Assembly (NCBI GenBank): GCA_044892525.1
Contig: JBJFYX010000158.1
Coordinates: 1-63,791, forward strand
Source: Schmidtea polychroa
Taxonomy: Eukaryota
Length of the DNA: 63,791 nucleotides
Reading direction: 5' to 3'
Part shown: piece by piece, positions 8,521-43,748 of the stretch
How positions within the stretch are numbered: the stretch's first letter is position 1
How the letters are laid out: every line of letters begins with the position of its first letter
The notes under the pieces: model-generated
Database searches by the model: none
The model's input: the letters and a program-made list of their open reading frames with translations, nothing else
Told to the model about the DNA's origin: nothing
Made by a program: the position numbers and the translations under genes

Positions 8521-9238
8521 TTGAGATTTTTGCCAAGTTTTTTGGTTTCAAAATCACAAAAGGTTATTCTGGGAAAATTTCCTGATTCTGTCCAATATCG
8601 TTGACAGAGTAAATCAAATAAAGTCTTGGCACCAAAACACCAATTATCATTTCCAATGACCTTTTTCATTAAATATATTTGAAACAATACATTGACCAAA
8701 TTGAAAACTTTCATTATCAGATAGCTCAAGCAAAGAATTCTTTTTCCTCTTGATGGGAATTTCATTGATACGAATCTGAAACATTTTCGGCATTTAATAA
8801 ACAAACCGAAAAATTTAATTTTTCTATTTGTGTTAGTCAAATGGTACCAGTGATTTCGGTTTGTTGACAATTTCGTGTGAATGTTTTTCTTTAAAATAAG
8901 ATTATGTAACATTTTGCTCAATTGTGTCAGTGCTTTCTGATCGTTTTCCACACTGTTTATTCCATCATTTAGTAATTTCAAGGTTTTTTGTAAATCGACA
9001 CCTGATCTTGAGCTCAAGTATCGCCAGAGAAAACACGGAAAGGAAAATAGTAAGGATTGTATTCCTAGAATAATTGGAATCCATTGATAATATCTGACTT
9101 CATTTTGGGAGAATTTCTTTACAGTAGATTTAGAGTCAATCGAATAGAAATAAGTGTTTGACACCCAACAATAGTTTTCGGTATATTCTTCCCATCCTTG
9201 AGTAAATTCTTGAGGAATCCAACATTGAATTGGTTTTC
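8521..9238 (-). CDS. inx: Innexin, coding exon 3 (extracellular loop 1 to start of loop 2)
   Basis: Translates (G)KPIQCWIPQEFTQGWEEYTENYCWVSNTY...YYQWIPIILGIQSLLFSFPCFLWR...WTESGNFPRITFCDF, all typical innexin motifs. Acceptor cttag ends at 9239; donor gtaact starts at 8520. The remaining 3' exon(s) are not seen in the window. Confidence 0.93.
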
Positions 9239-14030: not shown

Positions 14031-14537
14031 CGTAAGGGAAGATTGCTTTCTAAAAGCTTTAGAAAATAACTTCTATTTTACAAAGGAGAATACTTATTTG
14101 TCTAACAAATGTTGCGGGTACACTACTCGGATGACCCCTTTCTAGTGCAACTTTAGTCTAGAGGATGAATGCCACCTCGATTTCGCCCATCATTTATTTG
14201 GTCATCGCCGAGCGGGACCCGTACATAACTTACACTCCAACATAGCACCCGTGAATTGCTTCGCGTTGGAACTGTGCTATGCCGGCGAGACGCCAGTAAG
14301 CAGGTGAGCCAGCTCCTTCGGACTACTCCTTACTGAGGCCTCGACTTCCCAACCCTGACTGCCGATAGAAGGACTTACGTCTACTCATTCCGTCGCCCCA
14401 TCGCAATATTTCTAGCTGAGTTTACCAACTGACTAATGCTCCTCATAATTTTATGACTCTCAATACCATTTACCAATTTCAACTCAACTGTCTTAAGATG
14501 AACACAAAGAAAAAAAAACGTATGCAGACAAATATGG

Positions 14538-14543
14538 TTTATT
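14538..14543 (-). terminator. Candidate LTR polyadenylation signal AATAAA (also 35038-35043 and 55538-55543)
   Basis: AATAAA on the minus strand downstream of the LTR ORF and about 430 bp from the LTR 3' end; function inferred. Confidence 0.35.
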
Positions 14544-14677
14544 ATTAAGATTATCACACAAATATATCTAACACCTATACAATAAAGTTCACGACAACGG
14601 GAAAAGAGACAAGGTAAAATGTTATCAGACAATGTTCAGGTCAATTCAGAGAACGAAGACTTTTTACGGGGAAGTTC

Positions 14678-15427
14678 TCATTTCTCCCACTCCGAGTCTG
14701 CCAATAGATCTTCCAAATCGAAAAACTCAGAGGCGTTTTCCTCCCAGGTAACACCAGCGGCGGAGATGATTCGCCCTGAGATCACTGATGCTAAATCAAT
14801 TGCTGCAGGAGGGTTGATGACTTTGATTGGATGATCCGACGATTGCTGGTTCTGTTTGGCGGTTACGCGTTCCCGCTGTTTCTTTTTGCGTTCGGCTCTC
14901 GATAATTGCCGACGCTTTGGCTTCGATGCCGTTGGGTTGATCGGGGGTGCTGCGGAGGTGGATGCTATCGCAGGTAGCACTTTACTGGTTCCGGTAAAGA
15001 TGATTTCTGGCCCTTTAGGTGAGAGCTCGGTCTCTACGCACCCATGGCAGGACTTTCCGACTGGAGAAGAAGATCCGCCAGAGATATCATGATGCGCGGG
15101 GAAAAGATTACTGGCTTCATTAATTGGGATCTTCGCGATCTTCCTTGTAGTCGCGGCCTGGACGTATAATTTGTGCAGCGCCTCCGACTGCTCTTTTATC
15201 AGGCTCCTCTGCGCCCGACTCTCGGAAATCAACGCGTCTCTACAGTGCTCGCTTCGGTGCAGCTTCTTCTGAACCTCCTTCATCTGGGTGGGACTAAACC
15301 ATGTCCCCTCTAACTCATCTATCCTTCTTTTGTGTTTTCCGATTTGGGCCTGGAGCTCTTTGATAATTGAATTCTTGTCGGAGCAAGAAAAACAAGGTCG
15401 AAGAACGGACTTGGAATTTGGCAACAT
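14678..15427 (-). CDS. LTR-embedded ORF, 249 aa (coiled coil, basic NLS-like stretch, acidic C-terminus)
   Basis: GC-richer intact ORF preceded by a strong acceptor ttttcattttcttttttcacag (ends 15437, in frame). No recognised homologue. Confidence 0.55.
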   Translation of the reverse strand: MLPNSKSVLRPCFSCSDKNSIIKELQAQIGKHKRRIDELEGTWFSPTQMKEVQKKLHRSEHCRDALISESRAQRSLIKEQSEALHKLYVQAATTRKIAKIPINEASNLFPAHHDISGGSSSPVGKSCHGCVETELSPKGPEIIFTGTSKVLPAIASTSAAPPINPTASKPKRRQLSRAERKKKQRERVTAKQNQQSSDHPIKVINPPAAIDLASVISGRIISAAGVTWEENASEFFDLEDLLADSEWEK

Positions 15428-18400
15428 TTTGAGCGACTGTGAAAAAAGAAAATGAAAATAATTAAATCAGCGGGAGTGTCACCATCTGACTACATTCATA
15501 CTGTACTGATCATAGACAAAAATATGGGTTTACCAGTCAAGACAAGTTCTACTACGCGATGGATTCTCGTACCCTTTCGGGGCTTTGATTATAAGAAGAT
15601 AAATCGATCAAACCAGATTTCACACAAGGAAAAGGAAGATATTACTATTTGTGAGAGAAATCTAGGTCGATGAAAAGGATTATTTATTTAATCCGCTTGG
15701 AGTCATTATTTCACGTTTACCGAGAATCGATTTAAATTGTCGACTTCTCCCCCCGTACGAGTGCTTTTAATGAGTGTATCATATACTGGGGTCGAGTGAC
15801 TATCTATGGAAAAGGGGTCCATAATGCCTGTTGATTAGTTCCTACAGGATAAACGGAAGGTTATTTAAATTTTTAATTGTTTATTCATTCTCTTTAATTA
15901 CTCACATATATGTTTTACCTGGTTTACATAATATTTATTTAACAATATTCGATATTTATATTAATGATAACTATGTCAAAAAATGAGATAATTTCGGTGC
16001 CATTCATGCTAAGATAATACAGAGAGAATAATCATAATTATGATCGAGTTTATCATTAAAAATTAGTGTCTTTATAACAACTGAGCACGGTATCCGTGTG
16101 AGCTAGTAGTCGACCATACCCGCTGGGTAGATAAGGTAATGTCAGCCCAGTGATTGACTCTTAATCCGGAGCGGTGAAATCTGATAGCTGTCGGTAGTTT
16201 AATTGGCATGTTCGATCTAATTTTACATGAGTAGATGCGTGTGTGACTTTGCCTACTGTACTTGGCTACTAGGTACGTCTGCAACTGGTGACGCATGCAA
16301 GGTGCGCTTTCACACACCTAATTATACTACAAATGCAGGCGTTGAAGGTTTGCATGATGGCATTCTCTCAGAATTTTATCCACCGCGTAATCACTCACAA
16401 TTCTACGGCATATGGTGATGATTTACTAATTCTCGCCGGATTATTGGAAAAATTCTAATTATCTGGATTGCAAATGTTGGATATAGCTTGCTCCAAGGGT
16501 GGATTTTTCGTCTTCAATTCCTCAAGCCTAGTTTATCAATCTACTCTCTAAGTGCTGGAGGATTTTTTCCTATCTCTGCTGGATTGCCAACCTCATGTAA
16601 TACTGGAATTTTGTATTTAACAAGATTATCGGCTAACTGGAAGAAATATATTTTCTTGGTTCGAATTGGTTGCATTTTCCATTGTTAAATTATTTGATGC
16701 CAATAGTTTAGGTAATTATGATAATTAATTGTATGTAAATATTTTTATACAAATAAAAAAAATTAATTGAAGTAAATTATTTTATGTAATTCAAAATTTT
16801 ATTTGGAACAAACTCGTTTTATGAAGTTCTAACAATTATCTGTAATAAATTATTTTACGTAGTTCTACAATTTATCCGTAAACAGTCATTTTGAATAATT
16901 CCAATAATTATCTGAAGTAATCTACTTTGAGCTTCCTTGCAACTATGTCTTTAAGAGAACTTTTAGATGAACGGAATAATAGTTCAAAGGGTTTTAGGGT
17001 AACAATTGGTCGGAACAGATTCTGAGTGAAAGGTATGAACATCAAAGATATGTCACAGATAGCCTCATTAAGGTTTGAACAATTTTTGACGCACAACCTA
17101 TATTGATGATAGAGAAATTTTTAGGCTTAGCAAAAACGATATTTGAAGACGATAGTGTGACACCCTCAATCACTGCGCGAATACATCAAAATTCTCCGAT
17201 TCCTTTATTACATATCTTTGTTTTCAATCACTACATGACTATCAATTTTCTGCCACCATTTACCTATAGATTTTAGTCGCACCTTCAGCAATTGGACCCG
17301 TGAAGAAGCCCTCACATTTCGGCCCAATCTAGCTGCGTGATTGAAATACCCTATGTCCACCGGTGGAGCTCCCGGAGGCACCTCACACCATGACATAGAG
17401 TATCTCAACGCCACGTTTCTCGCAAAATTGAATAGTCTCCAATAATAATTCATAAAAATTAATTCATAAAAGATCAATAATTCTTAACGAGCAAATCATT
17501 TATTATCGAGCAAATTATTTAAATAAAGCATTCTAAAATCAAACGAAAAGAAAAACCATTTTTTCTTTTTAAATTAAAAATATTATTAAACTATACGCAT
17601 TACTTAAAAATTCAAAATAAGCAATCAAAAAATCCTTACCGAATGATTGATACAAGTATGGGCTGAGTCGAAAAGGGTACTATGTCGAATCAGTTAATGC
17701 TCGAATATCGTCTAGTTCTGTAAAAATCTCTTGAATCTTGGAATTGTCCTCGTGAGTTATCGTGCGTTAGTTGCTGGAGTTCTGTTCTGTCGTAGAATAG
17801 ATTTACCTATTGAGGTGGTTGATTAACAGTGATTGTTATGTTTTTAATGCCTGCTTATATATTAATTTTTTGTTTGCGCGGACCAATTAGAATTGAGTAC
17901 CGCTTAATTTTATTAATTTAATTTATTTTCCTTGTTTTTGAGTTATTTCTTCTTACTTTCTTTATTAAAATTATGTTTTTATTTATTTTTCTTAATTTTC
18001 TTATTATTTACTATATTTTACGTTGTTTTCCGCCATTCTATTGTCCTATTTTAATTTTTTCTCATCTTTATATTTTTTGTTTTAATTCCTATTTTCTAAT
18101 TATTGTTTTTCTTATGTTTTATTCTATTTTGTTTGTCAATTTATTTGTTTTTATTTTTTATTTTATTTTAGTTAAGTTTGCCCTAATTTCCCAACTACCC
18201 TTCGATTCAGCCCAACAAATCACTCGGGGACCCATCAAAATTGCGTCCCGCAATTGCATAGTTATCTTACTTCATGCATTCATAAAAAGGATATATCGAA
18301 ACAATTATACTACAATAATAAAAACAATTTTATTCTAAGATATAGGTCAAATCAAGACCAAGCAAGTATCACTTAAGGTGATAGTTTGTATATACAATAA

Positions 18401-18577
18401 AAGTTTCTACATATGATAACACCAATGTTTGAGTTAGAGTTTATGAACTGTTAACCATTTGATGCTTCTGCCGGCGGTTGTTGGTTGGTTTGAATATTGA
18501 TGTTGAGATAGGTCTGACTGTAAGAATTCGGCTGGATTGGTTGGTTACTCGGGATTCGAGGTCGGAATGGGGTTGGG

Positions 18578-19060
18578 TTAAGATTTGTCAGTGGCACTTC
18601 TTGAGAATTTTTCGTAAATCTTCATGAGTATTGGTAGACATAGGAGGAGGGTTTCTGCGATCACCACATATATGAGATAATGGGTGTCATTGATTTCGGG
18701 AGGTGGTTTTGGCTTTTCTACAAGATTTTCAAAATTCTCTTGTTGCATTTGTTGTTCTAACTGGTCGAATTGTTGGATTTGTTCGAGGATTTGTTTGTTT
18801 ATCATTTTACAAATGGGATTCTTTTTACACATTGTTTGGATGTTGTTGATGTGTGAACGGGTTGATTGAAGGGTTTGGATGATATGGATTTTTACTGTCA
18901 TAGGGTATGTGCATTGGCCGGATTCTCGTTTAGGTTCTTGATTTTGATTTCGGTAATCTCGCACGATTTTCGGTTGGGCGTTTACTTGTTTGTTCTCCGT
19001 CAGAATCATCAATACCGTCATTGTTATCATCATCTCGCCTCGCATGATACTATTATACAT
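18578..19060 (-). CDS. Cargo ORF, 160 aa, putative type-I membrane protein
   Basis: N-terminal hydrophobic MMITMTVLMILTE..VNA, three Cys, and TM-like YLIYVVIAETLLLCLPILM. Confidence 0.6.
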   Translation of the reverse strand: MYNSIMRGEMMITMTVLMILTENKQVNAQPKIVRDYRNQNQEPKRESGQCTYPMTVKIHIIQTLQSTRSHINNIQTMCKKNPICKMINKQILEQIQQFDQLEQQMQQENFENLVEKPKPPPEINDTHYLIYVVIAETLLLCLPILMKIYEKFSRSATDKS

Positions 19061-19101
19061 TCATTATGGTTTATTTACAATTGGTTTTAGTGACCCTTAA
19101 T

Positions 19102-19863
19102 TTAATGATTCTGGTTTGGGTTATTTTCGGCGATTCTCATCAGGGTGGATTCCGCTTTAATGACTCTGTGTCTTAACTCGGGCAGCATTTCCAACTGTCT
19201 GTTCTTTTCACGGGCCTCCCTTTTCATGTGCCTTATCTCCTTTTTCAGTCTCTTGATTTCTTCCCGTTTTTTGTCGAGATTCCTTCTTAGTTCGATTTGT
19301 AGGAAATCCTGTTCGTTTTCCTGCGAAAGGTTTCGTTGTTGTTGTTGTTGTTGTTTTCTCTCGATCTCTTGGTACTTGCGAATCCATTTCTTCATTTCCT
19401 CACTTTCTCGTTGTTTTTCCTCCAATTGTCGATTTAATTTATTTATAGTTATTTGGTGTTCTTTCGCCTCTGTTTTCCAATAATCTTGGATTACTTCTTC
19501 TGCCTTGAAGCTTGCCCTCTCTTGCCATAGTTCCTCTGCAATCTTTTCCCAGTTTCTTCCTCGTGTTCGTTGTTCTTGCAACCATTCATTCTTCTCTTCA
19601 GCTTCTCTCTTTATTTCTCCTAACGCTTCGCACTCCTTCTTTAGTATTTTAATCATTTTTCGGTCTTCTATATATTTGTTTATTAGTCTCTCGTTTTCGT
19701 CCCTCTCTTCCCGTAACTTGGCCTTTAACGTTTGTGTTTCTGTTGTTTCTGCCTCAATCTCTCCCTCTTCCACGTCGCTCGTAATTTCTATTATTTCCTC
19801 GATTTTCATATCTGTAATATGTACAGTTAATGGTGCGCTATAGTGCGACTTATACTTATGCAT
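19102..19863 (-). CDS. Cargo ORF, 253 aa, coiled-coil protein
   Basis: Intact E/K/R-rich heptad ORF with the same A-rich codon bias as the element. Confidence 0.7.
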   Translation of the reverse strand: MHKYKSHYSAPLTVHITDMKIEEIIEITSDVEEGEIEAETTETQTLKAKLREERDENERLINKYIEDRKMIKILKKECEALGEIKREAEEKNEWLQEQRTRGRNWEKIAEELWQERASFKAEEVIQDYWKTEAKEHQITINKLNRQLEEKQRESEEMKKWIRKYQEIERKQQQQQQRNLSQENEQDFLQIELRRNLDKKREEIKRLKKEIRHMKREAREKNRQLEMLPELRHRVIKAESTLMRIAENNPNQNH

Positions 19864-19920
19864 TTATATAAAATTTTAATAGTTCGGGTTACAGTCCCTT
19901 GAATACTTTTACAATACTTT

Positions 19921-19922
<2 letters not shown>

Positions 19923-19958
<36 letters not shown>
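19923..19958 (-). repeat. Internal poly(A)36 tract (copy 2: 40423-40458)
   Basis: 36 T on the plus strand; AATAAA (minus strand, 19995-20000) lies about 37 nt upstream. Confidence 0.9.
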
Positions 19959-19960
<2 letters not shown>

Positions 19961-20005
19961 TTGGGATATACGTCCCGATTTTTGTTTTTATCTTTTTATT
20001 CACCC

Positions 20006-21061
20006 TTATACGAAGGTTTCCTCCTGTCCCACATAACCTTCGTCACTATCGACCGCTGGATGCAGCTGTATCGCAATAGGGTCATAGGGTAGGTAATATT
20101 GGGGGATTTGAGCTCTCAATTCACTAACTTCGTCTCTTAGAGCTCGAGTGATATTCAGCTCTTCGTCGAGCAGATAAGTGAGATACCTTGTCTCTTCGTC
20201 TTTCGCCTCTACTTGTCTATCTAAGGCCTTGATTTTCTCGTCGCCCTTCCATTTTTCAATTTCTATTTCCAAGTTTTTGATGTTTTCGGTATACATTTTC
20301 CTCTCGTTTTCCAATTTTCTGTTTTTTCCCGCCAGGACCATGTTTCTTTGTTCTAACGATCCTTGTAATCCATTAAGGTCTCTTTTCATCTCTTCGACCT
20401 GATTTACCAATTCCACCACCCGTCCTGCTTGCTGGGTTATCATCTCTTCCATTGCGGCATTCTCGTGCTCTCTTATGTCGCATTTTATTGCCAAATGTCG
20501 TTCAAACTCCATAGCCTTCATCTGCCATGTTTGGCTTCGGGCGGCGACCTTTTTCAACCGTTTCAGTTCTTCCTTTATTATTAAATTTTCCTCCCATTTA
20601 CCCTGTTCGCTCTCATATCCGAGTCTCATGGGCAATTCTTTCATCTCTTTTTTCATTTCATTGCTTTGTCTTTTCCATTTTCTCGCTTCTGCCACTAAGT
20701 GCATCATTTTCCTTCCTTCTATTTGCTTTTCCGCTTCGCGCTTGGTGTTTTCATCGGTAAGTCTCTTTCTCGCTTCCTGCACTAGCTGCTTTAAGTAGTG
20801 GCTGTGCGCTTCTTGGCGGGTATTTTCTAGTGACGCCCATTTTGATGCTCTTTTGCATGCTTCTGCTTCCGCTCTTAAGTTGTGTATTAACCATTGGTAT
20901 TGACTATTCTCATCCTCTCTAGTTTCTTCGATGTGATTTCGGGTGAGATTAGTTAGTTGGAACATTACTTTGTTCCATTTTTTGTTATGTTCTCGGGGAA
21001 TTTGTGTCTTGTTGACATTGGTTGGGGCTATCGCAGTTTCGGTTAGTTTCTCTTGTGTCAT
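20006..21061 (-). CDS. Cargo ORF, 351 aa, coiled-coil protein
   Basis: Long intact ORF with heptad character; no recognised family. Confidence 0.75.
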   Translation of the reverse strand: MTQEKLTETAIAPTNVNKTQIPREHNKKWNKVMFQLTNLTRNHIEETREDENSQYQWLIHNLRAEAEACKRASKWASLENTRQEAHSHYLKQLVQEARKRLTDENTKREAEKQIEGRKMMHLVAEARKWKRQSNEMKKEMKELPMRLGYESEQGKWEENLIIKEELKRLKKVAARSQTWQMKAMEFERHLAIKCDIREHENAAMEEMITQQAGRVVELVNQVEEMKRDLNGLQGSLEQRNMVLAGKNRKLENERKMYTENIKNLEIEIEKWKGDEKIKALDRQVEAKDEETRYLTYLLDEELNITRALRDEVSELRAQIPQYYLPYDPIAIQLHPAVDSDEGYVGQEETFV

Positions 21062-21254
21062 CTCTAAATCATAGACATCGATTAATCTTTTTATTATGAA
21101 AAAGGAATTTATTCATTATTTACTGTTTCTTGGGAAATTTTCGCATCATTTTTGGGTTTTCGTATTTAGGGTTTTCATACTATTATTATATAATATTTTA
21201 TTGGTTATATACACCGATATATACAGATTATTATATACAACATTATTCGATTGG

Positions 21255-22643
21255 TTACTCCGTTCTACCCTTCTCCTCTTTCCTCACGGTCATCTTGATA
21301 TACACCGTGTCATTTCTTGCCATATCTTCTACTTTTTGTTGTAGGATGAACGTAGGTGCTCCTGTTGCTGATCCTTCTTCTGCCGTAGGTCTCTGGTAAC
21401 ACATTTGGTTTCCAGTTGTCTTGAAGCTTTGTTCGTGGATGCTTCGGTCATTCATTAGTGCAATATCGATTTTTGCCTGGAACGGCCACTCTATTATTTC
21501 GTCGTATTCCCCTTTACATAACAGAAAGAAAATCGAAAAGTGCGTATCTAATCCGGTTCCGTCCCCGTTGGGATATATCTTCATTTTCATTTTGTACCCA
21601 TTTTTCCAAGAATGGAATGCAGGACTTGTTATTCTTGTCTCTTCTCCGGTTTTTGCTTTTCGTATTCTTTCTTTTACTCCCGTTATTTTCCATATGTAGG
21701 GTGCTGTTGGGGTTATCTCATTTAGATTTATTTCCCGTATTTTCTGATGTAGCTCCTTGGCCTGATTATTACTGATTTCTATTCGGTTTATTTGCATCTT
21801 TATGTTTGCTCGGGCTTCTTCTAACGCTTCCCTTTCTTCTAGTAGTTCTTTGACTAACACTTTCAACGATGTTATCTCTATCTCCATTTGTTTTACTTTC
21901 TCTTCGCTTTCTTGTAACGCAGTCGACCACATTTCTGCGTGGGTTGAAGCATTTTCTACTAAATGATGTGGTAACTCACCTCGGTGTAGTAGTTTCTGAC
22001 AACCCCATCTACCTAGTACACATGTCATTCTTTTCTTTTCGCATTCCCTTAGATGCTGTGCCACCTTCATTATTTCCCCTTGGTTACATCCGTTTGGGCA
22101 TTCCGCACTGAACTCTGCACATACTCTCTCCTCTTGGACATTGTGATGTTTGAGGGTGAGATTTTTCCACGTATCTATTTCTCCACAGTGTTCACATCTT
22201 TCCAATCTCTCTTCACACTGCCTTTGATGCTCTTTTTCTTCGCTTGCTCGAATGGTTTTATGGCACCTTTCACACTGGCCAATTCTGTACATACATTCTC
22301 CCATATGTTGTACTACCTTCCATATTACTCCTTTCCATTCGCATGGGGCATTTTTGCATCCCAGGTTGGTGTTTAACATGTCTTTCACTGCGGCTTTATC
22401 CTCGTTAGTGTCTTCTAACCTCGATATTAGTGTCTCTTTACACACCGGGCACCTCTGTGGTCTATTCTTTATTGCTTCACTGATACATTCTTTACATACT
22501 CTGCATCCACATTGCGTTTGGTGAGGTTCCTTTAACAACTTTTCACATATTCCGCACATAACATGTTTGTGTATTCTGATCGTTGTAGATTTTCGGACTT
22601 GCTCGACAATCTCTCTGAACTCTTCTCTTTGTCGTTTATCCAT
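21255..22643 (-). CDS. TRAF: TNF receptor-associated factor (TRAF)-like protein, intronless, element-borne
   Basis: RING CGICEKLLKEPHQTQCGCRVCKEC..RCPVC; TRAF zinc fingers; coiled coil; MATH domain (YIWKI..SPAF..GYKMKMKIYPNGDG..THFSIFFLLCKGEYDEIIEWPF). Confidence 0.95.
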   Translation of the reverse strand: MDKRQREEFREIVEQVRKSTTIRIHKHVMCGICEKLLKEPHQTQCGCRVCKECISEAIKNRPQRCPVCKETLISRLEDTNEDKAAVKDMLNTNLGCKNAPCEWKGVIWKVVQHMGECMYRIGQCERCHKTIRASEEKEHQRQCEERLERCEHCGEIDTWKNLTLKHHNVQEERVCAEFSAECPNGCNQGEIMKVAQHLRECEKKRMTCVLGRWGCQKLLHRGELPHHLVENASTHAEMWSTALQESEEKVKQMEIEITSLKVLVKELLEEREALEEARANIKMQINRIEISNNQAKELHQKIREINLNEITPTAPYIWKITGVKERIRKAKTGEETRITSPAFHSWKNGYKMKMKIYPNGDGTGLDTHFSIFFLLCKGEYDEIIEWPFQAKIDIALMNDRSIHEQSFKTTGNQMCYQRPTAEEGSATGAPTFILQQKVEDMARNDTVYIKMTVRKEEKGRTE

Positions 22644-22728
22644 TCTATAATTATATGTACAAATAGTTCTTATCGATACAGGTTCGATATTTTATTTACA
22701 ATTATTTACATTTTAAGCTAGGTTTGGT

Positions 22729-23088
22729 TTAGGGTTCGGAAGAGTCGGCTTCGTGTCCGCTCTCCTCTCTATTCATTAGCCATTCCGACCAGTCTTCTAT
22801 TTCTGTCTGTTCTGCTTCCTCCATCATTCTGTCTAGCTCGATTTCCTGTCTACGGCTATATTGGGTTATCCTCTCTATCTCTCTTTGCATTTGTTCGATT
22901 TTCAATCTCTGGTCTTCAATTATTTTCAAATAACTAAATCCTCTATTCATACTCTCGATTAGGTTTCTGTGCATCGTCAATCCTTGTTCTTGCAAATTGG
23001 ACACTAATTGTGCTAATACGGCACATTGTTGCTTCCATAATTCTTCAGTTACTGTATTGTGGTTCATTTCGTTATTTCCTTGATCCAT
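22729..23088 (-). CDS. Cargo ORF, ~119 aa from first ATG (short coiled coil)
   Basis: The ORF track start at 23112 is TTG; the first ATG is at 23088 (MDQGNNE...). Confidence 0.55.
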   Translation of the reverse strand: MDQGNNEMNHNTVTEELWKQQCAVLAQLVSNLQEQGLTMHRNLIESMNRGFSYLKIIEDQRLKIEQMQREIERITQYSRRQEIELDRMMEEAEQTEIEDWSEWLMNREESGHEADSSEP

Positions 23089-23248
23089 TCTTAATTTATA
23101 TACACTTTTCAACTCTTATTTAACTTTAATTTTATTTTATGATTCCCGTTATTGTATAATATTGATACCGCGCTTATATAAAGATATAGTACTGTTATAT
23201 ACATAAGATATACTTACTTTTTACAATTATATACAGTCATATTCCTTT

Positions 23249-26200
23249 CTATATACGTGAGTTTGGAGGGCGCTGAGCGTTCCAGGCCTCCACCCACTGT
23301 TCTTGTTTGATATCACTTGGTCGTTTCACTCGATGTTGGAAATTTCTGATTCGGGTCATCTCTAGTTCTCCGCGATGTCGTTTATCTTTAATTATTTTTA
23401 TTGTTCCCCCTGTTATGATTAGGAAGGCCCCTGTTATTATTATCCCACTGATCCACATCATCTGCTTCACGCTTATATTCTCTGGTTTCTCCTTGTTTGT
23501 TAATGTTGATATCGCTTCTGTACCTTGCTCGTTTCCTCTTTTGCCATTTCCTTTCATCATTTCCCGTATTCTTGCTATTTCCTCGTTCATACCCTCCTTT
23601 GCCATCTTTTGTATTTTTTCCATCTCTTCCTCCGAAACATAGTTGTCCTGAGCTTCCTCACCGGTTTTCTTGTGCTTTCCTCCTTCGTTCTTTTCGTCGT
23701 GGTTTTTTCTTTTCTTTCCTCTTTTCCCCGGGTATCGTCGGCATTCTCTTTTTGATTCGTTCCTCCAGATACAAACCGTGTATTCTTTCGGCGGCTGCTG
23801 CTGCGTCACATATTGATGGCATCTCTCACCTGGTCCTAATCTTGAAATACAGACTTTGTGCTCTTTTCTAGGTTGGAGCTGCGTTATTACTACTTCACCA
23901 CCTTTTCCTAGGTGTACCTCTTTTCCTTTAACGTTCGTTATTCTCTTCCCGTCTCGATTTCGGTATGCTTCTTGTATTCTTACTTCTGTTATTGGTTCTG
24001 TGTCCTCATTTATCAGTACTAGTTTCTGATACGCTCTAGACATGCATCTTCCTAGTATGCACCTTTCCTTTAAGTCCCATTCTTCCTTTAAATCCCACTG
24101 CTGCTCTTGTGCTTGCTTTTTCTTTTCTTGTTTTAGTTCATCCTCTTTGCTATCTTGATTCTCCGCTTCTTTGGTTTCTTTTATCGTTCTCGTCCCTCCA
24201 TGAGCTGTTACTAACTCTATCATGGTAAGCATAATTATCATTAATATCATATTTGTCTCTATTTCTTTGTTAGTGAAAGGTAGGCATACCCTCTGTTTTC
24301 CATTATTCGGTTTTTCCTCCTCTTTGGTCTTGGTTCCCGGCCTGTTTCCCTCTCTTTTCGTATCCAAATCCTTGTTTTCCGGTTTATCCTCTTCCGGTTC
24401 TCTTTTCCCTTTATCCTCTTTCCGGCCTTTTCCATCATTGTCATCGTGTTTATCTCCCCCGCTGTCATTTAAAATGTCGTCCTCGACATTTATATCGTTC
24501 AATAATCTGCGATATGCTGTTAGCACTCTGTTTCTTGCTAATTTTGCTTCGAATTCAAACTCTTTTCTACCCGTTGCAGCATGTCTCTTTCTATTCCATT
24601 CTTTAACTAACTCTCTCAATTGCATACGACGATGTTTCCCAATTCGTTGTTGCTCGTTCTGATTTTGCGTGAATTTTAGGTCTTCTCTATTTAATACTAT
24701 TAAAATAATTTTAGGCGTCCCCCCCTTAGTTAGGGTATTCTTTACCATCGCATTTTCTCCGTTTTCGTAGAATTCGTTTACATTTATCGCATATTTATTA
24801 TTTTGTGGTACTCTCCAGGTTAATAATAATTTCATTGCTTCTAGATTTTTCCGTACCGTATTCCATTGAAACTGAGATGTGTTTTTGCACATATTTTCAA
24901 CTTCTTCTTTTGTCGCATTTTTGCAAATAAATCTGATCATTTCTAAGTTTGGCTGTATGGTTGCCCAGTCCAAGGTGGAATTTCCTTCATTGGACCTTTC
25001 GTCTAGTTTCGATCCTGCTTGATGTAGGATGTGGAGTGTTTTTGGGTGTATTTTCGTTATAGCTGCATACATCATGGCGGTTTCACCTTGTTCATTTTTC
25101 GTGTTGGTTTCCTCGCCCATCTCCCCAAGGATTCTCATGATCGTTATTGCTCTATTCTCTTTTGCAGCTAGTATTGCTTGTTGTAGAGGTGTTCTGGAAT
25201 CCTTTGTTACCATCGTAAATGCTCGAGGCAAGAAGGTTTTGATTTTCCCGATATCTAAACCCGTGGTTTGATCTCTTGCGTATGTGTGTACGGCTTTTAT
25301 TATTTTGGACAATATTATTTCGTCTGGCAGCTCTAGCATTTCCTCAAAGAACACTTCTTTTGCTTTGCGTATTATTGCCTCTTGATCTATACTCATTGAT
25401 TTGGTTTCGATGACGTTGTTTGTGACCGTTTGGTTCGTTGTTGACTTTGATTCCCTGGATTTCTCATACCTTATTTTCGTTTTCTTTCCGTTTGGATTAT
25501 TGATTCGTTCCTCTGCTGTAAGTATTTGGATAATATCCAGGTAATTCTCGCGGATGTTATTCATTGTGTCCATCATATATAACACACTTACCGTTTCCCA
25601 ATATTTATTTCGTACTTGGTTAGTAAATTGGAATAGTGATTTTTCGAATGTGTCGATTCGCTTTTTTGTTAACTGTTCATCTTTGTGATTTGTGAATTTT
25701 ATCCCTCGTTCTAGTAATTGATTCGGGATTTCGAATAAATGATGTCCTTTCATAGCTTCTCTCATCAGCGTGTTCTCTCCTCTCGTGAACGCTTCGTTTA
25801 CGTTGATCATATAATCGTTTTGAATTGGATTTCTCCATGTAATTAATATTCCGGTAATTGTCGTCAGTTTTTCTTTGATCGCTGTTAACAATCCATCATA
25901 CATGTTTCCGACTTCCCGATTGTCCTCATATGATAGTAGTTCCATCAATGACGTGAACGCCTCGGTACTTCTCCCTTCGATAGCATGATGTAGAGCGTTT
26001 TTCCGCTCGTGGTCTTGTGTAGTTATTTTCGATCCGGTATCGAGTAATGCGGTTATAATGTCTTTTGTTTTGCCTCTGTTTGCGGCTATCATTAATGGTG
26101 TGTAACCTTGGTTGTTTGTTTGTTCTGTTGATCGCTTGCAGTCGTGAAATGCTTCTATTGTTTCTAGTATTTGCTCGTTGTTACCTACTTTCATGAGTTT

Positions 26201-29227: not shown

Positions 29228-29537
29228 TCGTCAACAACATACTATCTATTGTCCATAATTCATCATCTTTGATCATCTCGTTGGTCACTTTCGGTAATTC
29301 TATGTCCATCATTGGGGTCAATCTTCCCAATTTTTCGTTCTCATAAATGATTTTGTCTTCCTCTTCGAAATTCGTGATGTTGAGCGGTATCACTCCTTCT
29401 TGGTTTATTGTGATTATTTCTCTTGCGAGTGGTAATTCTCGTCGCTTTTCAAATGACTTGCTTGGTTCAAAGATAACTTCTCCTTCCATACCCGTATCCA
29501 ATCGAAAAGTTCGTCGGTGACTGTATTTTTTATCCAC
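29184..29537 (-). CDS. Gag-Pol linker segment in the -1 frame (pre-RT domain)
   Basis: EGEVIFEP..LAREII..IPLNITN..ENEKLGRL resembles the segment between protease and RT in gypsy Pol and leads naturally into LLTNDEKKK/LHRLLVEYKDIF. Confidence 0.65.
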   Translation of the reverse strand: MDKKYSHRRTFRLDTGMEGEVIFEPSKSFEKRRELPLAREIITINQEGVIPLNITNFEEEDKIIYENEKLGRLTPMMDIELPKVTNEMIKDDELWTIDSMLLTNDEKKKIAPIVGRI

Positions 29538-37600: not shown

Positions 37601-38717
37601 TATTGATGATAGAGAAATTTTTAGGCTTAGCAAAAACGATATTTGAAGACGATAGTGTGACACCCTCAATCACTGCGCGAATACATCAAAATTCTCCGAT
37701 TCCTTTATTACATATCTTTGTTTTCAATCACTACATGACTATCAATTTTCTGCCACCATTTACCTATAGATTTTAGTCGCACCTTCAGCAATTGGACCCG
37801 TGAAGAAGCCCTCACATTTCGGCCCAATCTAGCTGCGTGATTGAAATACCCTATGTCCACCGGTGGAGCTCCCGGAGGCACCTCACACCATGACATAGAG
37901 TATCTCAACGCCACGTTTCTCGCAAAATTGAATAGTCTCCAATAATAATTCATAAAAATTAATTCATAAAAGATCAATAATTCTTAACGAGCAAATCATT
38001 TATTATCGAGCAAATTATTTAAATAAAGCATTCTAAAATCAAACGAAAAGAAAAACCATTTTTTCTTTTTAAATTAAAAATATTATTAAACTATACGCAT
38101 TACTTAAAAATTCAAAATAAGCAATCAAAAAATCCTTACCGAATGATTGATACAAGTATGGGCTGAGTCGAAAAGGGTACTATGTCGAATCAGTTAATGC
38201 TCGAATATCGTCTAGTTCTGTAAAAATCTCTTGAATCTTGGAATTGTCCTCGTGAGTTATCGTGCGTTAGTTGCTGGAGTTCTGTTCTGTCGTAGAATAG
38301 ATTTACCTATTGAGGTGGTTGATTAACAGTGATTGTTATGTTTTTAATGCCTGCTTATATATTAATTTTTTGTTTGCGCGGACCAATTAGAATTGAGTAC
38401 CGCTTAATTTTATTAATTTAATTTATTTTCCTTGTTTTTGAGTTATTTCTTCTTACTTTCTTTATTAAAATTATGTTTTTATTTATTTTTCTTAATTTTC
38501 TTATTATTTACTATATTTTACGTTGTTTTCCGCCATTCTATTGTCCTATTTTAATTTTTTCTCATCTTTATATTTTTTGTTTTAATTCCTATTTTCTAAT
38601 TATTGTTTTTCTTATGTTTTATTCTATTTTGTTTGTCAATTTATTTGTTTTTATTTTTTATTTTATTTTAGTTAAGTTTGCCCTAATTTCCCAACTACCC
38701 TTCGATTCAGCCCAACA
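34610..38717 (-). repeat. LTR 2 (shared central LTR)
   Basis: Flanked by internal-region sequence on both sides. Confidence 0.97.
35178..35927 (-). CDS. LTR-embedded 249-aa ORF, copy 2
   Basis: Identical translation to 14678-15427. Confidence 0.55.
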   Translation of the reverse strand: MLPNSKSVLRPCFSCSDKNSIIKELQAQIGKHKRRIDELEGTWFSPTQMKEVQKKLHRSEHCRDALISESRAQRSLIKEQSEALHKLYVQAATTRKIAKIPINEASNLFPAHHDISGGSSSPVGKSCHGCVETELSPKGPEIIFTGTSKVLPAIASTSAAPPINPTASKPKRRQLSRAERKKKQRERVTAKQNQQSSDHPIKVINPPAAIDLASVISGRIISAAGVTWEENASEFFDLEDLLADSEWEK

Positions 38718-39077
38718 AATCACTCGGGGACCCATCAAAATTGCGTCCCGCAATTGCATAGTTATCTTACTTCATGCATTCATAAAAAGGATATATCGAA
38801 ACAATTATACTACAATAATAAAAACAATTTTATTCTAAGATATAGGTCAAATCAAGACCAAGCAAGTATCACTTAAGGTGATAGTTTGTATATACAATAA
38901 AAGTTTCTACATATGATAACACCAATGTTTGAGTTAGAGTTTATGAACTGTTAACCATTTGATGCTTCTGCCGGCGGTTGTTGGTTGGTTTGAATATTGA
39001 TGTTGAGATAGGTCTGACTGTAAGAATTCGGCTGGATTGGTTGGTTACTCGGGATTCGAGGTCGGAATGGGGTTGGG

Positions 39078-39560
39078 TTAAGATTTGTCAGTGGCACTTC
39101 TTGAGAATTTTTCGTAAATCTTCATGAGTATTGGTAGACATAGGAGGAGGGTTTCTGCGATCACCACATATATGAGATAATGGGTGTCATTGATTTCGGG
39201 AGGTGGTTTTGGCTTTTCTACAAGATTTTCAAAATTCTCTTGTTGCATTTGTTGTTCTAACTGGTCGAATTGTTGGATTTGTTCGAGGATTTGTTTGTTT
39301 ATCATTTTACAAATGGGATTCTTTTTACACATTGTTTGGATGTTGTTGATGTGTGAACGGGTTGATTGAAGGGTTTGGATGATATGGATTTTTACTGTCA
39401 TAGGGTATGTGCATTGGCCGGATTCTCGTTTAGGTTCTTGATTTTGATTTCGGTAATCTCGCACGATTTTCGGTTGGGCGTTTACTTGTTTGTTCTCCGT
39501 CAGAATCATCAATACCGTCATTGTTATCATCATCTCGCCTCGCATGATACTATTATACAT
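39078..39560 (-). CDS. 160-aa membrane cargo ORF, copy 2
   Basis: Identical translation, offset +20500. Confidence 0.6.
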   Translation of the reverse strand: MYNSIMRGEMMITMTVLMILTENKQVNAQPKIVRDYRNQNQEPKRESGQCTYPMTVKIHIIQTLQSTRSHINNIQTMCKKNPICKMINKQILEQIQQFDQLEQQMQQENFENLVEKPKPPPEINDTHYLIYVVIAETLLLCLPILMKIYEKFSRSATDKS

Positions 39561-39601
39561 TCATTATGGTTTATTTACAATTGGTTTTAGTGACCCTTAA
39601 T

Positions 39602-40363
39602 TTAATGATTCTGGTTTGGGTTATTTTCGGCGATTCTCATCAGGGTGGATTCCGCTTTAATGACTCTGTGTCTTAACTCGGGCAGCATTTCCAACTGTCT
39701 GTTCTTTTCACGGGCCTCCCTTTTCATGTGCCTTATCTCCTTTTTCAGTCTCTTGATTTCTTCCCGTTTTTTGTCGAGATTCCTTCTTAGTTCGATTTGT
39801 AGGAAATCCTGTTCGTTTTCCTGCGAAAGGTTTCGTTGTTGTTGTTGTTGTTGTTTTCTCTCGATCTCTTGGTACTTGCGAATCCATTTCTTCATTTCCT
39901 CACTTTCTCGTTGTTTTTCCTCCAATTGTCGATTTAATTTATTTATAGTTATTTGGTGTTCTTTCGCCTCTGTTTTCCAATAATCTTGGATTACTTCTTC
40001 TGCCTTGAAGCTTGCCCTCTCTTGCCATAGTTCCTCTGCAATCTTTTCCCAGTTTCTTCCTCGTGTTCGTTGTTCTTGCAACCATTCATTCTTCTCTTCA
40101 GCTTCTCTCTTTATTTCTCCTAACGCTTCGCACTCCTTCTTTAGTATTTTAATCATTTTTCGGTCTTCTATATATTTGTTTATTAGTCTCTCGTTTTCGT
40201 CCCTCTCTTCCCGTAACTTGGCCTTTAACGTTTGTGTTTCTGTTGTTTCTGCCTCAATCTCTCCCTCTTCCACGTCGCTCGTAATTTCTATTATTTCCTC
40301 GATTTTCATATCTGTAATATGTACAGTTAATGGTGCGCTATAGTGCGACTTATACTTATGCAT
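39602..40363 (-). CDS. 253-aa coiled-coil cargo ORF, copy 2
   Basis: Identical translation, offset +20500. Confidence 0.7.
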   Translation of the reverse strand: MHKYKSHYSAPLTVHITDMKIEEIIEITSDVEEGEIEAETTETQTLKAKLREERDENERLINKYIEDRKMIKILKKECEALGEIKREAEEKNEWLQEQRTRGRNWEKIAEELWQERASFKAEEVIQDYWKTEAKEHQITINKLNRQLEEKQRESEEMKKWIRKYQEIERKQQQQQQRNLSQENEQDFLQIELRRNLDKKREEIKRLKKEIRHMKREAREKNRQLEMLPELRHRVIKAESTLMRIAENNPNQNH

Positions 40364-40420
40364 TTATATAAAATTTTAATAGTTCGGGTTACAGTCCCTT
40401 GAATACTTTTACAATACTTT

Positions 40421-40460
<40 letters not shown>

Positions 40461-40505
40461 TTGGGATATACGTCCCGATTTTTGTTTTTATCTTTTTATT
40501 CACCC

Positions 40506-41561
40506 TTATACGAAGGTTTCCTCCTGTCCCACATAACCTTCGTCACTATCGACCGCTGGATGCAGCTGTATCGCAATAGGGTCATAGGGTAGGTAATATT
40601 GGGGGATTTGAGCTCTCAATTCACTAACTTCGTCTCTTAGAGCTCGAGTGATATTCAGCTCTTCGTCGAGCAGATAAGTGAGATACCTTGTCTCTTCGTC
40701 TTTCGCCTCTACTTGTCTATCTAAGGCCTTGATTTTCTCGTCGCCCTTCCATTTTTCAATTTCTATTTCCAAGTTTTTGATGTTTTCGGTATACATTTTC
40801 CTCTCGTTTTCCAATTTTCTGTTTTTTCCCGCCAGGACCATGTTTCTTTGTTCTAACGATCCTTGTAATCCATTAAGGTCTCTTTTCATCTCTTCGACCT
40901 GATTTACCAATTCCACCACCCGTCCTGCTTGCTGGGTTATCATCTCTTCCATTGCGGCATTCTCGTGCTCTCTTATGTCGCATTTTATTGCCAAATGTCG
41001 TTCAAACTCCATAGCCTTCATCTGCCATGTTTGGCTTCGGGCGGCGACCTTTTTCAACCGTTTCAGTTCTTCCTTTATTATTAAATTTTCCTCCCATTTA
41101 CCCTGTTCGCTCTCATATCCGAGTCTCATGGGCAATTCTTTCATCTCTTTTTTCATTTCATTGCTTTGTCTTTTCCATTTTCTCGCTTCTGCCACTAAGT
41201 GCATCATTTTCCTTCCTTCTATTTGCTTTTCCGCTTCGCGCTTGGTGTTTTCATCGGTAAGTCTCTTTCTCGCTTCCTGCACTAGCTGCTTTAAGTAGTG
41301 GCTGTGCGCTTCTTGGCGGGTATTTTCTAGTGACGCCCATTTTGATGCTCTTTTGCATGCTTCTGCTTCCGCTCTTAAGTTGTGTATTAACCATTGGTAT
41401 TGACTATTCTCATCCTCTCTAGTTTCTTCGATGTGATTTCGGGTGAGATTAGTTAGTTGGAACATTACTTTGTTCCATTTTTTGTTATGTTCTCGGGGAA
41501 TTTGTGTCTTGTTGACATTGGTTGGGGCTATCGCAGTTTCGGTTAGTTTCTCTTGTGTCAT
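40506..41561 (-). CDS. 351-aa coiled-coil cargo ORF, copy 2
   Basis: Identical translation, offset +20500. Confidence 0.75.
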   Translation of the reverse strand: MTQEKLTETAIAPTNVNKTQIPREHNKKWNKVMFQLTNLTRNHIEETREDENSQYQWLIHNLRAEAEACKRASKWASLENTRQEAHSHYLKQLVQEARKRLTDENTKREAEKQIEGRKMMHLVAEARKWKRQSNEMKKEMKELPMRLGYESEQGKWEENLIIKEELKRLKKVAARSQTWQMKAMEFERHLAIKCDIREHENAAMEEMITQQAGRVVELVNQVEEMKRDLNGLQGSLEQRNMVLAGKNRKLENERKMYTENIKNLEIEIEKWKGDEKIKALDRQVEAKDEETRYLTYLLDEELNITRALRDEVSELRAQIPQYYLPYDPIAIQLHPAVDSDEGYVGQEETFV

Positions 41562-41754
41562 CTCTAAATCATAGACATCGATTAATCTTTTTATTATGAA
41601 AAAGGAATTTATTCATTATTTACTGTTTCTTGGGAAATTTTCGCATCATTTTTGGGTTTTCGTATTTAGGGTTTTCATACTATTATTATATAATATTTTA
41701 TTGGTTATATACACCGATATATACAGATTATTATATACAACATTATTCGATTGG

Positions 41755-43143
41755 TTACTCCGTTCTACCCTTCTCCTCTTTCCTCACGGTCATCTTGATA
41801 TACACCGTGTCATTTCTTGCCATATCTTCTACTTTTTGTTGTAGGATGAACGTAGGTGCTCCTGTTGCTGATCCTTCTTCTGCCGTAGGTCTCTGGTAAC
41901 ACATTTGGTTTCCAGTTGTCTTGAAGCTTTGTTCGTGGATGCTTCGGTCATTCATTAGTGCAATATCGATTTTTGCCTGGAACGGCCACTCTATTATTTC
42001 GTCGTATTCCCCTTTACATAACAGAAAGAAAATCGAAAAGTGCGTATCTAATCCGGTTCCGTCCCCGTTGGGATATATCTTCATTTTCATTTTGTACCCA
42101 TTTTTCCAAGAATGGAATGCAGGACTTGTTATTCTTGTCTCTTCTCCGGTTTTTGCTTTTCGTATTCTTTCTTTTACTCCCGTTATTTTCCATATGTAGG
42201 GTGCTGTTGGGGTTATCTCATTTAGATTTATTTCCCGTATTTTCTGATGTAGCTCCTTGGCCTGATTATTACTGATTTCTATTCGGTTTATTTGCATCTT
42301 TATGTTTGCTCGGGCTTCTTCTAACGCTTCCCTTTCTTCTAGTAGTTCTTTGACTAACACTTTCAACGATGTTATCTCTATCTCCATTTGTTTTACTTTC
42401 TCTTCGCTTTCTTGTAACGCAGTCGACCACATTTCTGCGTGGGTTGAAGCATTTTCTACTAAATGATGTGGTAACTCACCTCGGTGTAGTAGTTTCTGAC
42501 AACCCCATCTACCTAGTACACATGTCATTCTTTTCTTTTCGCATTCCCTTAGATGCTGTGCCACCTTCATTATTTCCCCTTGGTTACATCCGTTTGGGCA
42601 TTCCGCACTGAACTCTGCACATACTCTCTCCTCTTGGACATTGTGATGTTTGAGGGTGAGATTTTTCCACGTATCTATTTCTCCACAGTGTTCACATCTT
42701 TCCAATCTCTCTTCACACTGCCTTTGATGCTCTTTTTCTTCGCTTGCTCGAATGGTTTTATGGCACCTTTCACACTGGCCAATTCTGTACATACATTCTC
42801 CCATATGTTGTACTACCTTCCATATTACTCCTTTCCATTCGCATGGGGCATTTTTGCATCCCAGGTTGGTGTTTAACATGTCTTTCACTGCGGCTTTATC
42901 CTCGTTAGTGTCTTCTAACCTCGATATTAGTGTCTCTTTACACACCGGGCACCTCTGTGGTCTATTCTTTATTGCTTCACTGATACATTCTTTACATACT
43001 CTGCATCCACATTGCGTTTGGTGAGGTTCCTTTAACAACTTTTCACATATTCCGCACATAACATGTTTGTGTATTCTGATCGTTGTAGATTTTCGGACTT
43101 GCTCGACAATCTCTCTGAACTCTTCTCTTTGTCGTTTATCCAT
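41755..43143 (-). CDS. TRAF: TRAF-like protein, copy 2
   Basis: Identical translation to 21255-22643. Confidence 0.95.
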   Translation of the reverse strand: MDKRQREEFREIVEQVRKSTTIRIHKHVMCGICEKLLKEPHQTQCGCRVCKECISEAIKNRPQRCPVCKETLISRLEDTNEDKAAVKDMLNTNLGCKNAPCEWKGVIWKVVQHMGECMYRIGQCERCHKTIRASEEKEHQRQCEERLERCEHCGEIDTWKNLTLKHHNVQEERVCAEFSAECPNGCNQGEIMKVAQHLRECEKKRMTCVLGRWGCQKLLHRGELPHHLVENASTHAEMWSTALQESEEKVKQMEIEITSLKVLVKELLEEREALEEARANIKMQINRIEISNNQAKELHQKIREINLNEITPTAPYIWKITGVKERIRKAKTGEETRITSPAFHSWKNGYKMKMKIYPNGDGTGLDTHFSIFFLLCKGEYDEIIEWPFQAKIDIALMNDRSIHEQSFKTTGNQMCYQRPTAEEGSATGAPTFILQQKVEDMARNDTVYIKMTVRKEEKGRTE

Positions 43144-43228
43144 TCTATAATTATATGTACAAATAGTTCTTATCGATACAGGTTCGATATTTTATTTACA
43201 ATTATTTACATTTTAAGCTAGGTTTGGT

Positions 43229-43588
43229 TTAGGGTTCGGAAGAGTCGGCTTCGTGTCCGCTCTCCTCTCTATTCATTAGCCATTCCGACCAGTCTTCTAT
43301 TTCTGTCTGTTCTGCTTCCTCCATCATTCTGTCTAGCTCGATTTCCTGTCTACGGCTATATTGGGTTATCCTCTCTATCTCTCTTTGCATTTGTTCGATT
43401 TTCAATCTCTGGTCTTCAATTATTTTCAAATAACTAAATCCTCTATTCATACTCTCGATTAGGTTTCTGTGCATCGTCAATCCTTGTTCTTGCAAATTGG
43501 ACACTAATTGTGCTAATACGGCACATTGTTGCTTCCATAATTCTTCAGTTACTGTATTGTGGTTCATTTCGTTATTTCCTTGATCCAT
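43229..43588 (-). CDS. ~119-aa cargo ORF, copy 2
   Basis: Identical translation, offset +20500. Confidence 0.55.
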   Translation of the reverse strand: MDQGNNEMNHNTVTEELWKQQCAVLAQLVSNLQEQGLTMHRNLIESMNRGFSYLKIIEDQRLKIEQMQREIERITQYSRRQEIELDRMMEEAEQTEIEDWSEWLMNREESGHEADSSEP

Positions 43589-43748
43589 TCTTAATTTATA
43601 TACACTTTTCAACTCTTATTTAACTTTAATTTTATTTTATGATTCCCGTTATTGTATAATATTGATACCGCGCTTATATAAAGATATAGTACTGTTATAT
43701 ACATAAGATATACTTACTTTTTACAATTATATACAGTCATATTCCTTT

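Follow-up and report, generated by a model that had tools for sequence, protein, structure and literature searches.

What are clusters of Pumilio-type UGUAHAUA motifs doing in the short spacers between the cargo genes of a giant retroelement, and which protein would read them? The question is raised by a stretch of 63,791 nucleotides (nt) of Schmidtea polychroa (GenBank assembly GCA_044892525.1, contig JBJFYX010000158.1, positions 1 to 63,791 of the forward strand; the whole stretch is called the window), whose minus strand carries a Ty3/Gypsy element bounded by long terminal repeats (LTRs). Its order of open reading frames (ORFs) is LTR ORF, RING ORF, gag, reverse transcriptase (RT)-RNase H-integrase-ankyrin and five cargo ORFs, one of them TRAF-like, followed by the LTR. 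By layout and domains it is a Burro-type giant Ty3/Gypsy element, the named Burro-1 to -4 being compared by description only. An original prediction had listed 11 TGTA[ACT]ATA matches and proposed that the cargo mRNAs are individually 3'-processed through CFIm and/or placed under germline or stem-cell PUF control. We find that the motif cluster is real and represents a conserved regulatory grammar within an element of known kind, the new part being the anatomy of a PUF-type cassette anchored to stop codons.

Motif counts, strand bias and controls

All 11 minus-strand matches lie where they had been reported, as does a 13-mer said to occur in two spacers (22691-22703 and 19070-19082), and a 12th sense site that had gone unlisted is located at 19818-19825. 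Within the 1,034 nt of the six spacer regions there are 12 sense matches as compared to a mean of 0.53 in dinucleotide shuffles, with a maximum of 4 among 5,000 shuffles, in agreement with the proposed enrichment in these AT-rich spacers (73-79% AT; 49% A, 27% T, 9% C). The antisense strand of the spacers has a single match, so that the two strands do not have equal densities. The sense strand of the element has no match in the coding sequences (12,676 nt, with 2 antisense matches), the LTR (4,109 nt, with 1 antisense match) or the leader (3,032 nt, with no antisense match either), and the 18.7 kb of host flanks have 7 matches on the minus and 5 on the plus strand, without bias. The match at 18389-18396 had been counted as a cluster member, but it overlaps a plus-strand match (18387-18394), follows the last ORF at a distance of 181 nt and is replaced by TGTATGTA in 3/3 sister copies compared, and is for these reasons probably outside the pattern.

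Further copies were compared in family A (6 besides the window), subfamily B (4; ~74% DNA identity), one intermediate (L018) and family C (11), the latter being 81% identical to family A in the pol core and 25-32% in the cargo proteins, with c5 lacking a match. UGUAHAUA sites are kept in family C, and families A and C pooled have 18 exact sites in 11 spacers, where 1.2 are expected, and none on the antisense strand.

Host genes served as a control with 40 loci (20 G protein-coupled receptor, 16 tubulin and 4 TRAF loci, none dropped), their stops being inferred from the open frame. The 8-mer occurs in 0/40 within the first 60 nt after the stop and in 2/40 within 200 nt, the first TGTA lies at 13-23 nt in 1/40 genes, and TGTA behind the stops is balanced between the strands (48 sense versus 46 antisense). 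The rarity of the 8-mer and the strand balance rule out a generic feature of host 3' untranslated regions (UTRs).

Anchoring of the sites to the upstream stop codon

The spacers are organised by two features, anchoring of the sites to the upstream stop and an AG before each ATG. With each lineage represented by a single copy, 10/11 spacers of families A and C have their first TGTA at 13-22 nt from the stop, the first TGTA is an exact UGUAHAUA in 9/11, and no spacer has a TGTA within the first 12 nt (0/11; P=0.006 under uniform placement). Across the 10 anchored spacers the position of the first TGTA has a standard deviation of 2.3 nt when measured from the stop versus 47 nt when measured from the next ATG, and in the five longest of them (140-193 nt) the first site still lies at 13-16 nt. 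A second TGTA usually follows 9-14 nt after the first, forming a twin. In subfamily B, 4/5 spacers have the anchored pattern.

An exact site at 13-23 nt is found behind 9/11 internal ORFs versus 0/9 terminal ORFs, the latter being the last cargo, RING and LTR ORFs, from which a 233-amino acid (aa) frame of L031 (a gag fragment) and L040 (a duplicate of L039) were dropped. All three terminal ORFs of the window are followed by AATAAA and T-rich tracts. The fixed offset of 13-22 nt from five or six different stops suggests a process tied to translation termination, and the presence of clusters behind internal stops together with their absence behind terminal ORFs fits such a function.

At the opposite end of the spacers, YAG or AAG lies 0-4 nt before the next ATG in 11/11 spacers of families A and C (3.7 expected within 5 nt), and an AG precedes the ATG in 5/5 spacers of subfamily B as well. 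Spacer length is 55-219 nt in 16/16 spacers, and intron acceptors of host tubulin genes are, by eye, similarly AU-rich. A second class of TGTA is located 10-20 nt before the ATG in 8/11 spacers (3.6 expected, P=0.005).

The lone window spacer lacking a stop-proximal site, spacer 4, has an A36 tract instead. An A-tract of variable length is present in the homologous spacer of both families (~7-36 in A and B, up to ~29 in C, where it lies in spacer 5 of L021 and L038-L042) and could bind PABP or be a product of slippage. Spacer 4 also contains small GC-clamped hairpins (GGGA-N6-TCCC, GGG-N7-CCC and CGC-N6-GCG), the arms of which are kept in subfamily B with two loops changed, and its first 60 nt fold with z=-3.6. 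An RNA structure shared by the regions behind the stops was considered and rejected, as 10/11 first-60-nt windows have z above -1.4 and spacer 4 alone folds. In family C, runs of (A/G)TAGT repeats, which we take to resemble Musashi sites, adjoin the TGTA clusters of spacers 1 and 4 (L021 minus strand, L039).

The conservation pattern and the host Pumilio

Across 5-10 copies per spacer, variable columns amount to 11/158 within TGTA, 10/112 at positions 6-8, 9/38 at position 5 and 258/988 elsewhere, and for the first sites no column at positions 6-8 varies (0/30); since the copies are related, P values for this conservation are optimistic. The PUF consensus is UGUAHAUA with a tolerant position 5 (PMC4995099, PMC5855632). 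With positions 6-8 constrained and position 5 free, the pattern agrees with a PUF site and not with the 4-base site of CFIm. The base-reading motifs of the host Pumilio match human PUM1/2 or fly Pumilio in 8/8 repeats, and the host genome also has a CFIm25 gene, a UPF1 gene and a nanos-like match. One Pumilio exon has two extra copies (G000:C4:88412964 and C4:88553481), 13 Mb from the full gene. A U at position -1, the base contacted by Nanos (PMC4995099), is present in 4/11 first and 9/29 later sites.

Thus, of the two functions originally proposed, control by a PUF protein gains support from the conservation of an 8-mer whose position 5 is free, from its retention in a family whose cargo proteins are 25-32% identical and its rarity behind host stops, and from a canonical host Pumilio; individual 3' processing is not supported (see below). 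Judged from these sequence features, the balance tips modestly towards the sites being functional cytoplasmic PUF-type elements, in whichever direction they would act.

The element, its copies and its relatives

The element is present twice in the window with a period of 20,500 nt and 4.1-kb LTRs (self-BLAST), and its ends carry a 4-bp target duplication, CAAA. The whole motif cluster recurs at +20,500 because the unit is there twice in near-identical form (2 differences over 24.6 kb). Window 14109-59217 is arranged as LTR-internal-LTR-internal-LTR, and a chromosome-scale contig (G000:C3:89906910-89931518) has one unit between identical flanks, so that the second unit, likely an assembly duplicate or an allelic tandem expansion, is not independent evidence. 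The unit measures 24.6 kb and lacks a further ~5.5 kb, which gives a total near 30 kb with multi-kb LTRs. The ~5.5-kb deletion near window 29500 removes the fusion-glycoprotein and protease domains, both of which lie inside this segment in one undeleted sister copy, and the window copy is likely non-autonomous.

At least 150 near-identical RT copies are found in the genome, many in 4,732-aa frames (100% RT identity), and sister copies encode a giant single Gag-Env-PR-RT-RH-IN polyprotein, which is internally deleted in the window copy. The polyprotein of family C measures 4,791 aa and contains a MATH domain (linked by position), and one of the six cargo ORFs of this family encodes a BIR-RING protein; the cargo and accessory domains of the window are ankyrin, TRAF and RING, BIR occurring in family C only. 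A search with the TRAF cargo protein gave no match at E<=1e-20 among 3,629 candidates, and the elements compared here all come from this genome. A Bcl-2 family search yielded a further compact family without cargo string; the Bcl-2-like matches are dozens in number, near-identical and interrupted by one internal TAG (e.g. C1:34775875-34776186), suggesting a repeated element, an intron or read-through.

A host innexin exon lies left of the insertion at window 8517-8912. In the leader before gag, a 74-bp tandem repeat (32941-33223) differs in copy number in L012, and a primer-binding site, presumably resembling tRNA-Pro, is located at 34586-34602 after a 7-nt gap. By eye, no obvious polypurine tract is seen before the 3' LTR at 18218-18262 or in L001, L003, L021 and L039, and the same region has an inverted repeat and a GGG..CCC block kept across families A, B and C.

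Table 1. Coordinates of the element features in the window.
Feature	Position	Strand	Remarks
3' LTR, ~4.1 kb, with 249-aa ORF	14110..18217	-	self-BLAST; copies 34610-38717 and 55110-59217
AATAAA and T-rich tract (56% T)	18329..18334	-	candidate poly(A) signal shared by subgenomic RNAs; similar signal in sisters; predicted function
Cargo ORF c5, 160 aa (155 from ATG 19045; 222 aa in sisters)	18578..19060	-	no Pfam match; no stop-proximal site behind its stop
Spacer 5, 56 nt	19046..19101	-	TGTAAATA 19072-19079 (22 nt after stop); TGTATAAT 19052-19059; AG 19050-19051
Cargo ORF c4, 235 aa (ATG 19809)	19102..19809	-	no Pfam match; 25% identical to family-C ORF
Spacer 4, 196 nt	19810..20005	-	exception without stop-proximal site; A36 tract 19923-19958; TGTACATA 19818-19825; AG 19812-19813
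Cargo ORF c3, 351 aa	20006..21061	-	no Pfam match; 27% identical to family-C ORF
Spacer 3, 193 nt	21062..21254	-	three TGTATATA: 21232-21239 (15 nt after stop), 21218-21225, 21206-21213
Spacer 3, tandem AG	21064-21065 and 21062-21063	-	
TRAF-like cargo ORF, RING and MATH, 462 aa	21255..22643	-	Pfam
Spacer 2, 85 nt	22644..22728	-	twin TGTAAATA: 22703-22710 (18 nt after stop), 22693-22700
Spacer 2, further features	22677-22680; 22654-22661; 22645-22646	-	TGTA; TGTACATA; AG
Cargo ORF c1, 119 aa	22729..23088	-	no Pfam match; 32% identical to family-C ORF
Spacer 1, 160 nt	23089..23248	-	TGTATATA 23228-23235 (13 nt after pol stop); TGTA 23222-23225; AG 23090-23091
Spacer 1, further TGTATATA sites	23196-23203 and 23097-23104	-	
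RT-RNase H-integrase-ankyrin frame, 1,992 aa	23249..29227	-	end of the 4,732-aa sister polyprotein
gag frame, 720 aa	29414..31576	-	
Leader RING ORF, 178 aa	33798..34334	-	AATAAA and T-rich tracts behind it; stop-proximal site absent
Predicted LTR promoter and leader	38134..38361	-	CCAAT-like box; TATATA at 38361; predicted function
Second copy of the motif cluster	38889..43735	-	+20,500

Promoter, splice signals and RNA contigs

The window LTR contains two donor-like sites, TAG|GTAAAT (38306) and TCG|GTAAGG (38139), with no ATG before the distal one. A similar layout of promoter and donors is found in 3/3 LTRs of A and B, and TATA plus a donor-like site in 2/2 LTRs of family C. A short direct duplication in the LTR leader (L001 ~6190-6240; L003 ~6385-6435) forms a GT..AG segment of ~50 nt, like a short host intron.

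None of the sequencing runs listed as containing the element is recorded as RNA. Read data over the element were contigs assembled from runs guessed to be RNA, four on 14109-32900, where 15/79 joints and 24/1,445 loose ends were among those listed, and one on 21000-23300. In the latter region 0/5 joints have CT..AC ends, and none of the 6 listed loose ends (of 54) matches a spliced leader (SL) end (PMC10899757 supplement) or poly(A). One X1 contig spans spacer 5 unspliced, as expected from genomic RNA or DNA under every model. One contig starts at the G of a predicted acceptor (~21064) and two others near 22657-22659; these starts carry no weight because contigs cannot show RNA starts. Runs X3 and X4, which carry a second organism label, contain 0.55 of the cargo words versus 0.55-0.61 in the runs with the first label.

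A possible role in translation termination

Our favoured explanation, which we hold tentatively, is that the Pumilio-type elements 13-22 nt behind internal stops would place Pumilio beside the terminating ribosome and thereby shield long-tailed RNAs from nonsense-mediated decay (NMD). Every spacer combines a TGTA cluster, as a rule stop-anchored, with an AG that lies 0-4 nt ahead of the following ATG; the LTR provides a TATA box and donor-like sites. Splicing would join a short LTR leader to the AG of each spacer and so produce a nested set of mRNAs with a common 3' end, and because of this shared end the internal ORFs would have tails of 0.8-4.9 kb, or 4.6-8.7 kb via the LTR signal. The signal at 18329-18334 before the 3' LTR could end subgenomic RNAs without an R region and would also truncate genomic RNA. 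A terminating ribosome covers ~15 nt past the stop, and Pumilio would occupy the clusters at the first bases outside it. The median 3' UTR of S. mediterranea is ~176 nt (PMC5068929), and RNAs with the long tails predicted here would be NMD targets. In the last and weakest step, Pumilio would stabilise the RNA or halt post-termination scanning in the manner of the Rous sarcoma virus (RSV) stability element with PTBP1, where escape from NMD needs stop-proximal, position-dependent binding (PMC4764554). The scheme in its entirety, a repeated cassette of stop, 13-22 nt, twin Pumilio element, acceptor and ATG by which a giant enveloped retroelement would express its cargo from nested RNAs with Pumilio as a termination-coupled NMD shield, is correspondingly more doubtful.

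Several points weigh against this explanation. To our knowledge, there is no report of Pumilio blocking NMD, and Pumilio mainly acts as a repressor that recruits deadenylation (PMC5855632, PMC4995099); these two facts keep our confidence from being any higher. The splicing, binding and stability steps are read from sequence and not from RNA, and family-C leaders carry an ATG before the donor-like site. The distance window of 13-23 nt was picked post hoc, with the data already seen. Spacer 4 of A and B lacks a stop-proximal site, spacer 4 of family C begins with an imperfect site, and at locus L018 one TGTAAATA overlaps the stop codon. Termination does not account for the TGTA class before the ATG, of which 3/8 cases only are exact sites. 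Shortness and compaction of the spacers may yield part of the anchoring. Five pairs of A and C spacers are positional homologues, of which 3/5 still align above shuffles, and owing to these pairs and to the relatedness of A and C the counts overstate independence. Two compact env-bearing families have no twin module behind the polyprotein stop, one of them with ~5 kb before the LTR, indicating that the module belongs to the multi-cargo lineages.

A close rival, although itself doubtful, is ordinary Pumilio repression, in which the PUF elements would deadenylate or silence the cargo mRNAs, e.g. in stem or germ cells, and the 13-22 nt offset would result merely from ribosomes sweeping nearer sites and from compact spacers. 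The whole PUF signature (enrichment, column conservation, host Pumilio) applies equally to this rival, which further draws on the nanos-like match and on BURRO1 RNA in differentiated cells after smedwi-2 RNA interference (RNAi; PMC8532177). However, nested RNAs would already receive many downstream sites, so that one cluster per stop would be unneeded, the longest anchored spacers do not begin later than 16 nt, and the base contacted by Nanos is present in a minority of first sites. Individual 3' ends appear unlikely: here the twin UGUA would recruit CFIm to spacer poly(A) sites, possibly with SL trans-splicing at the AG as in an operon, the internal signals being necessarily weak because genomic RNA must read through them. 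The twin spacing of 9-14 nt and the CFIm25 gene agree with this, AATAAA is found in 9/11 spacers, the 56-196 nt spacers fit the flatworm operon spacing of <=300 nt (PMC12582326), and planarians trans-splice (PMC10899757). Yet AATAAA is at chance level (13 observed versus 12.4 expected in the spacers; 9 versus 7.0 spacers, P=0.16), leaving individual 3' processing, and with it this half of the original prediction, unsupported. Moreover, no U-rich tract follows, the T fraction behind AATAAA being 0.12-0.41 at 13/13 spacer sites versus 0.48-0.56 at 4/4 other signals of the element. Constrained positions 6-8 with a free position 5 fit neither the CFIm site nor an overlapped AATAAA, and a signal read in the nucleus would not need to stay clear of the 12 nt that follow a stop. 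In the available text of a planarian 3P-seq study, UGUA is not enriched upstream of poly(A) signals and no confident CFIm59/68 is given (PMC5068929).

The remaining alternatives bear on the two ends of the spacers and on DNA. Nuclear splicing signals, i.e. TGTA clusters as intronic enhancers or regulators of alternative acceptors, have a parallel in human MAT2A, where CFIm on UGUA acts as a splicing enhancer, and would account for the TGTA class before the ATG, TGTA within 20 nt of the AG being seen by eye in 0/16 tubulin intron acceptors; as the main cluster holds its distance to the stop and not to the acceptor, this is improbable as a general explanation and may apply to the ATG-proximal class alone. 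Polycistronic translation by re-initiation across the short spacers, as known from caulimoviruses, is less probable again: each site class lies about one footprint edge from the stop or ATG and would flank the terminating or the initiating ribosome, but the variable 0-4 nt between AG and ATG and the LTR donor-like sites suit splicing better. We regard it as very improbable that TGTATATA and TGTAAATA, presumably one mismatch off the TATA box, are TATA- or Forkhead-like boxes of internal promoters. Spacer 1 also has a conserved TATATAAG, but the sites are anchored to the upstream stop, an invariant G at position 2 breaks the TATA box, and the LTR promoter of the element looks different (CCAAT and TATATA). 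Absence of function, the sites reflecting composition or being relics of one duplicated ancestral spacer, would draw on the AT content and on the ancestry shared by the families; it is largely refuted and hardly credible, as the sites greatly exceed the numbers in shuffles, are strand-specific and vary ~four times less than the adjoining columns.

Relation to known systems and implications

The element shares with the giant planarian Gypsy group Burro/GYPSM1 (Jurka 2007, Grohme 2018; description in PMC6431247) its multi-kb LTRs, accessory ORFs, ankyrin repeats and a cargo with TRAF/MATH, RING and, in family C, BIR domains, as well as a single polyprotein, ~4,700-4,800 aa long in copies without the deletion, in which a fusion glycoprotein separates gag from the protease. 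It differs in that the window copy lacks ~5.5 kb and the window TRAF is a separate downstream ORF. The available description is silent on the expression of the accessory ORFs and on spacer motifs. Our literature search, which left most subscription papers outside, found no account of motifs in Burro spacers or of a retroelement carrying Pumilio sites; the ORFs may be described in the supplements of Grohme 2018.

With the Pumilio/Nanos response element of Drosophila hunchback (PMC4995099) the spacers share UGUAHAUA, tandem sites, the location behind a stop and a cognate protein with the same base-reading residues. In contrast, the sites are repeated here behind each internal ORF of a multi-gene retroelement, with spacer 4 as the exception, at a fixed stop distance, the Nanos-type upstream bases are inconsistent, and binding is predicted. 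The RSV stability element (PMC4764554) likewise combines a retroelement RNA with a multi-kb tail (here predicted) and clustered sites directly behind the stop, and position dependence is expected in both; here the sites are AU-rich UGUA and not CU-rich, repeated five or six times, and the predicted reader is Pumilio. By analogy, the spacer clusters may work like this element, but they are not the same element. The CFIm twin-UGUA poly(A) enhancer (PMC10476966) is alike in its twin UGUA; the spacers differ by lacking AAUAAA enrichment and a U-rich downstream element and by a conserved 8-mer. Flatworm SL operons (PMC12582326) also have short same-strand spacers ending in an acceptor, whereas no SL is seen here within the limited RNA data.

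The available text of PMC6431247 does not say by what route the accessory genes of the 30-kb Burro elements are expressed, and the spacers offer a precise, testable grammar. RNAi of pumilio, upf1 and CFIm25 is feasible in planarians, so the rivals are experimentally separable. If the clusters prove repressive, the retroelement puts cell-death and TRAF cargo under a stem-cell regulator. If they prove protective, a PUF protein joins the known NMD shields, and the favoured explanation, if true, would add a new function to those of PUF proteins and give the RSV stability element an invertebrate equivalent.

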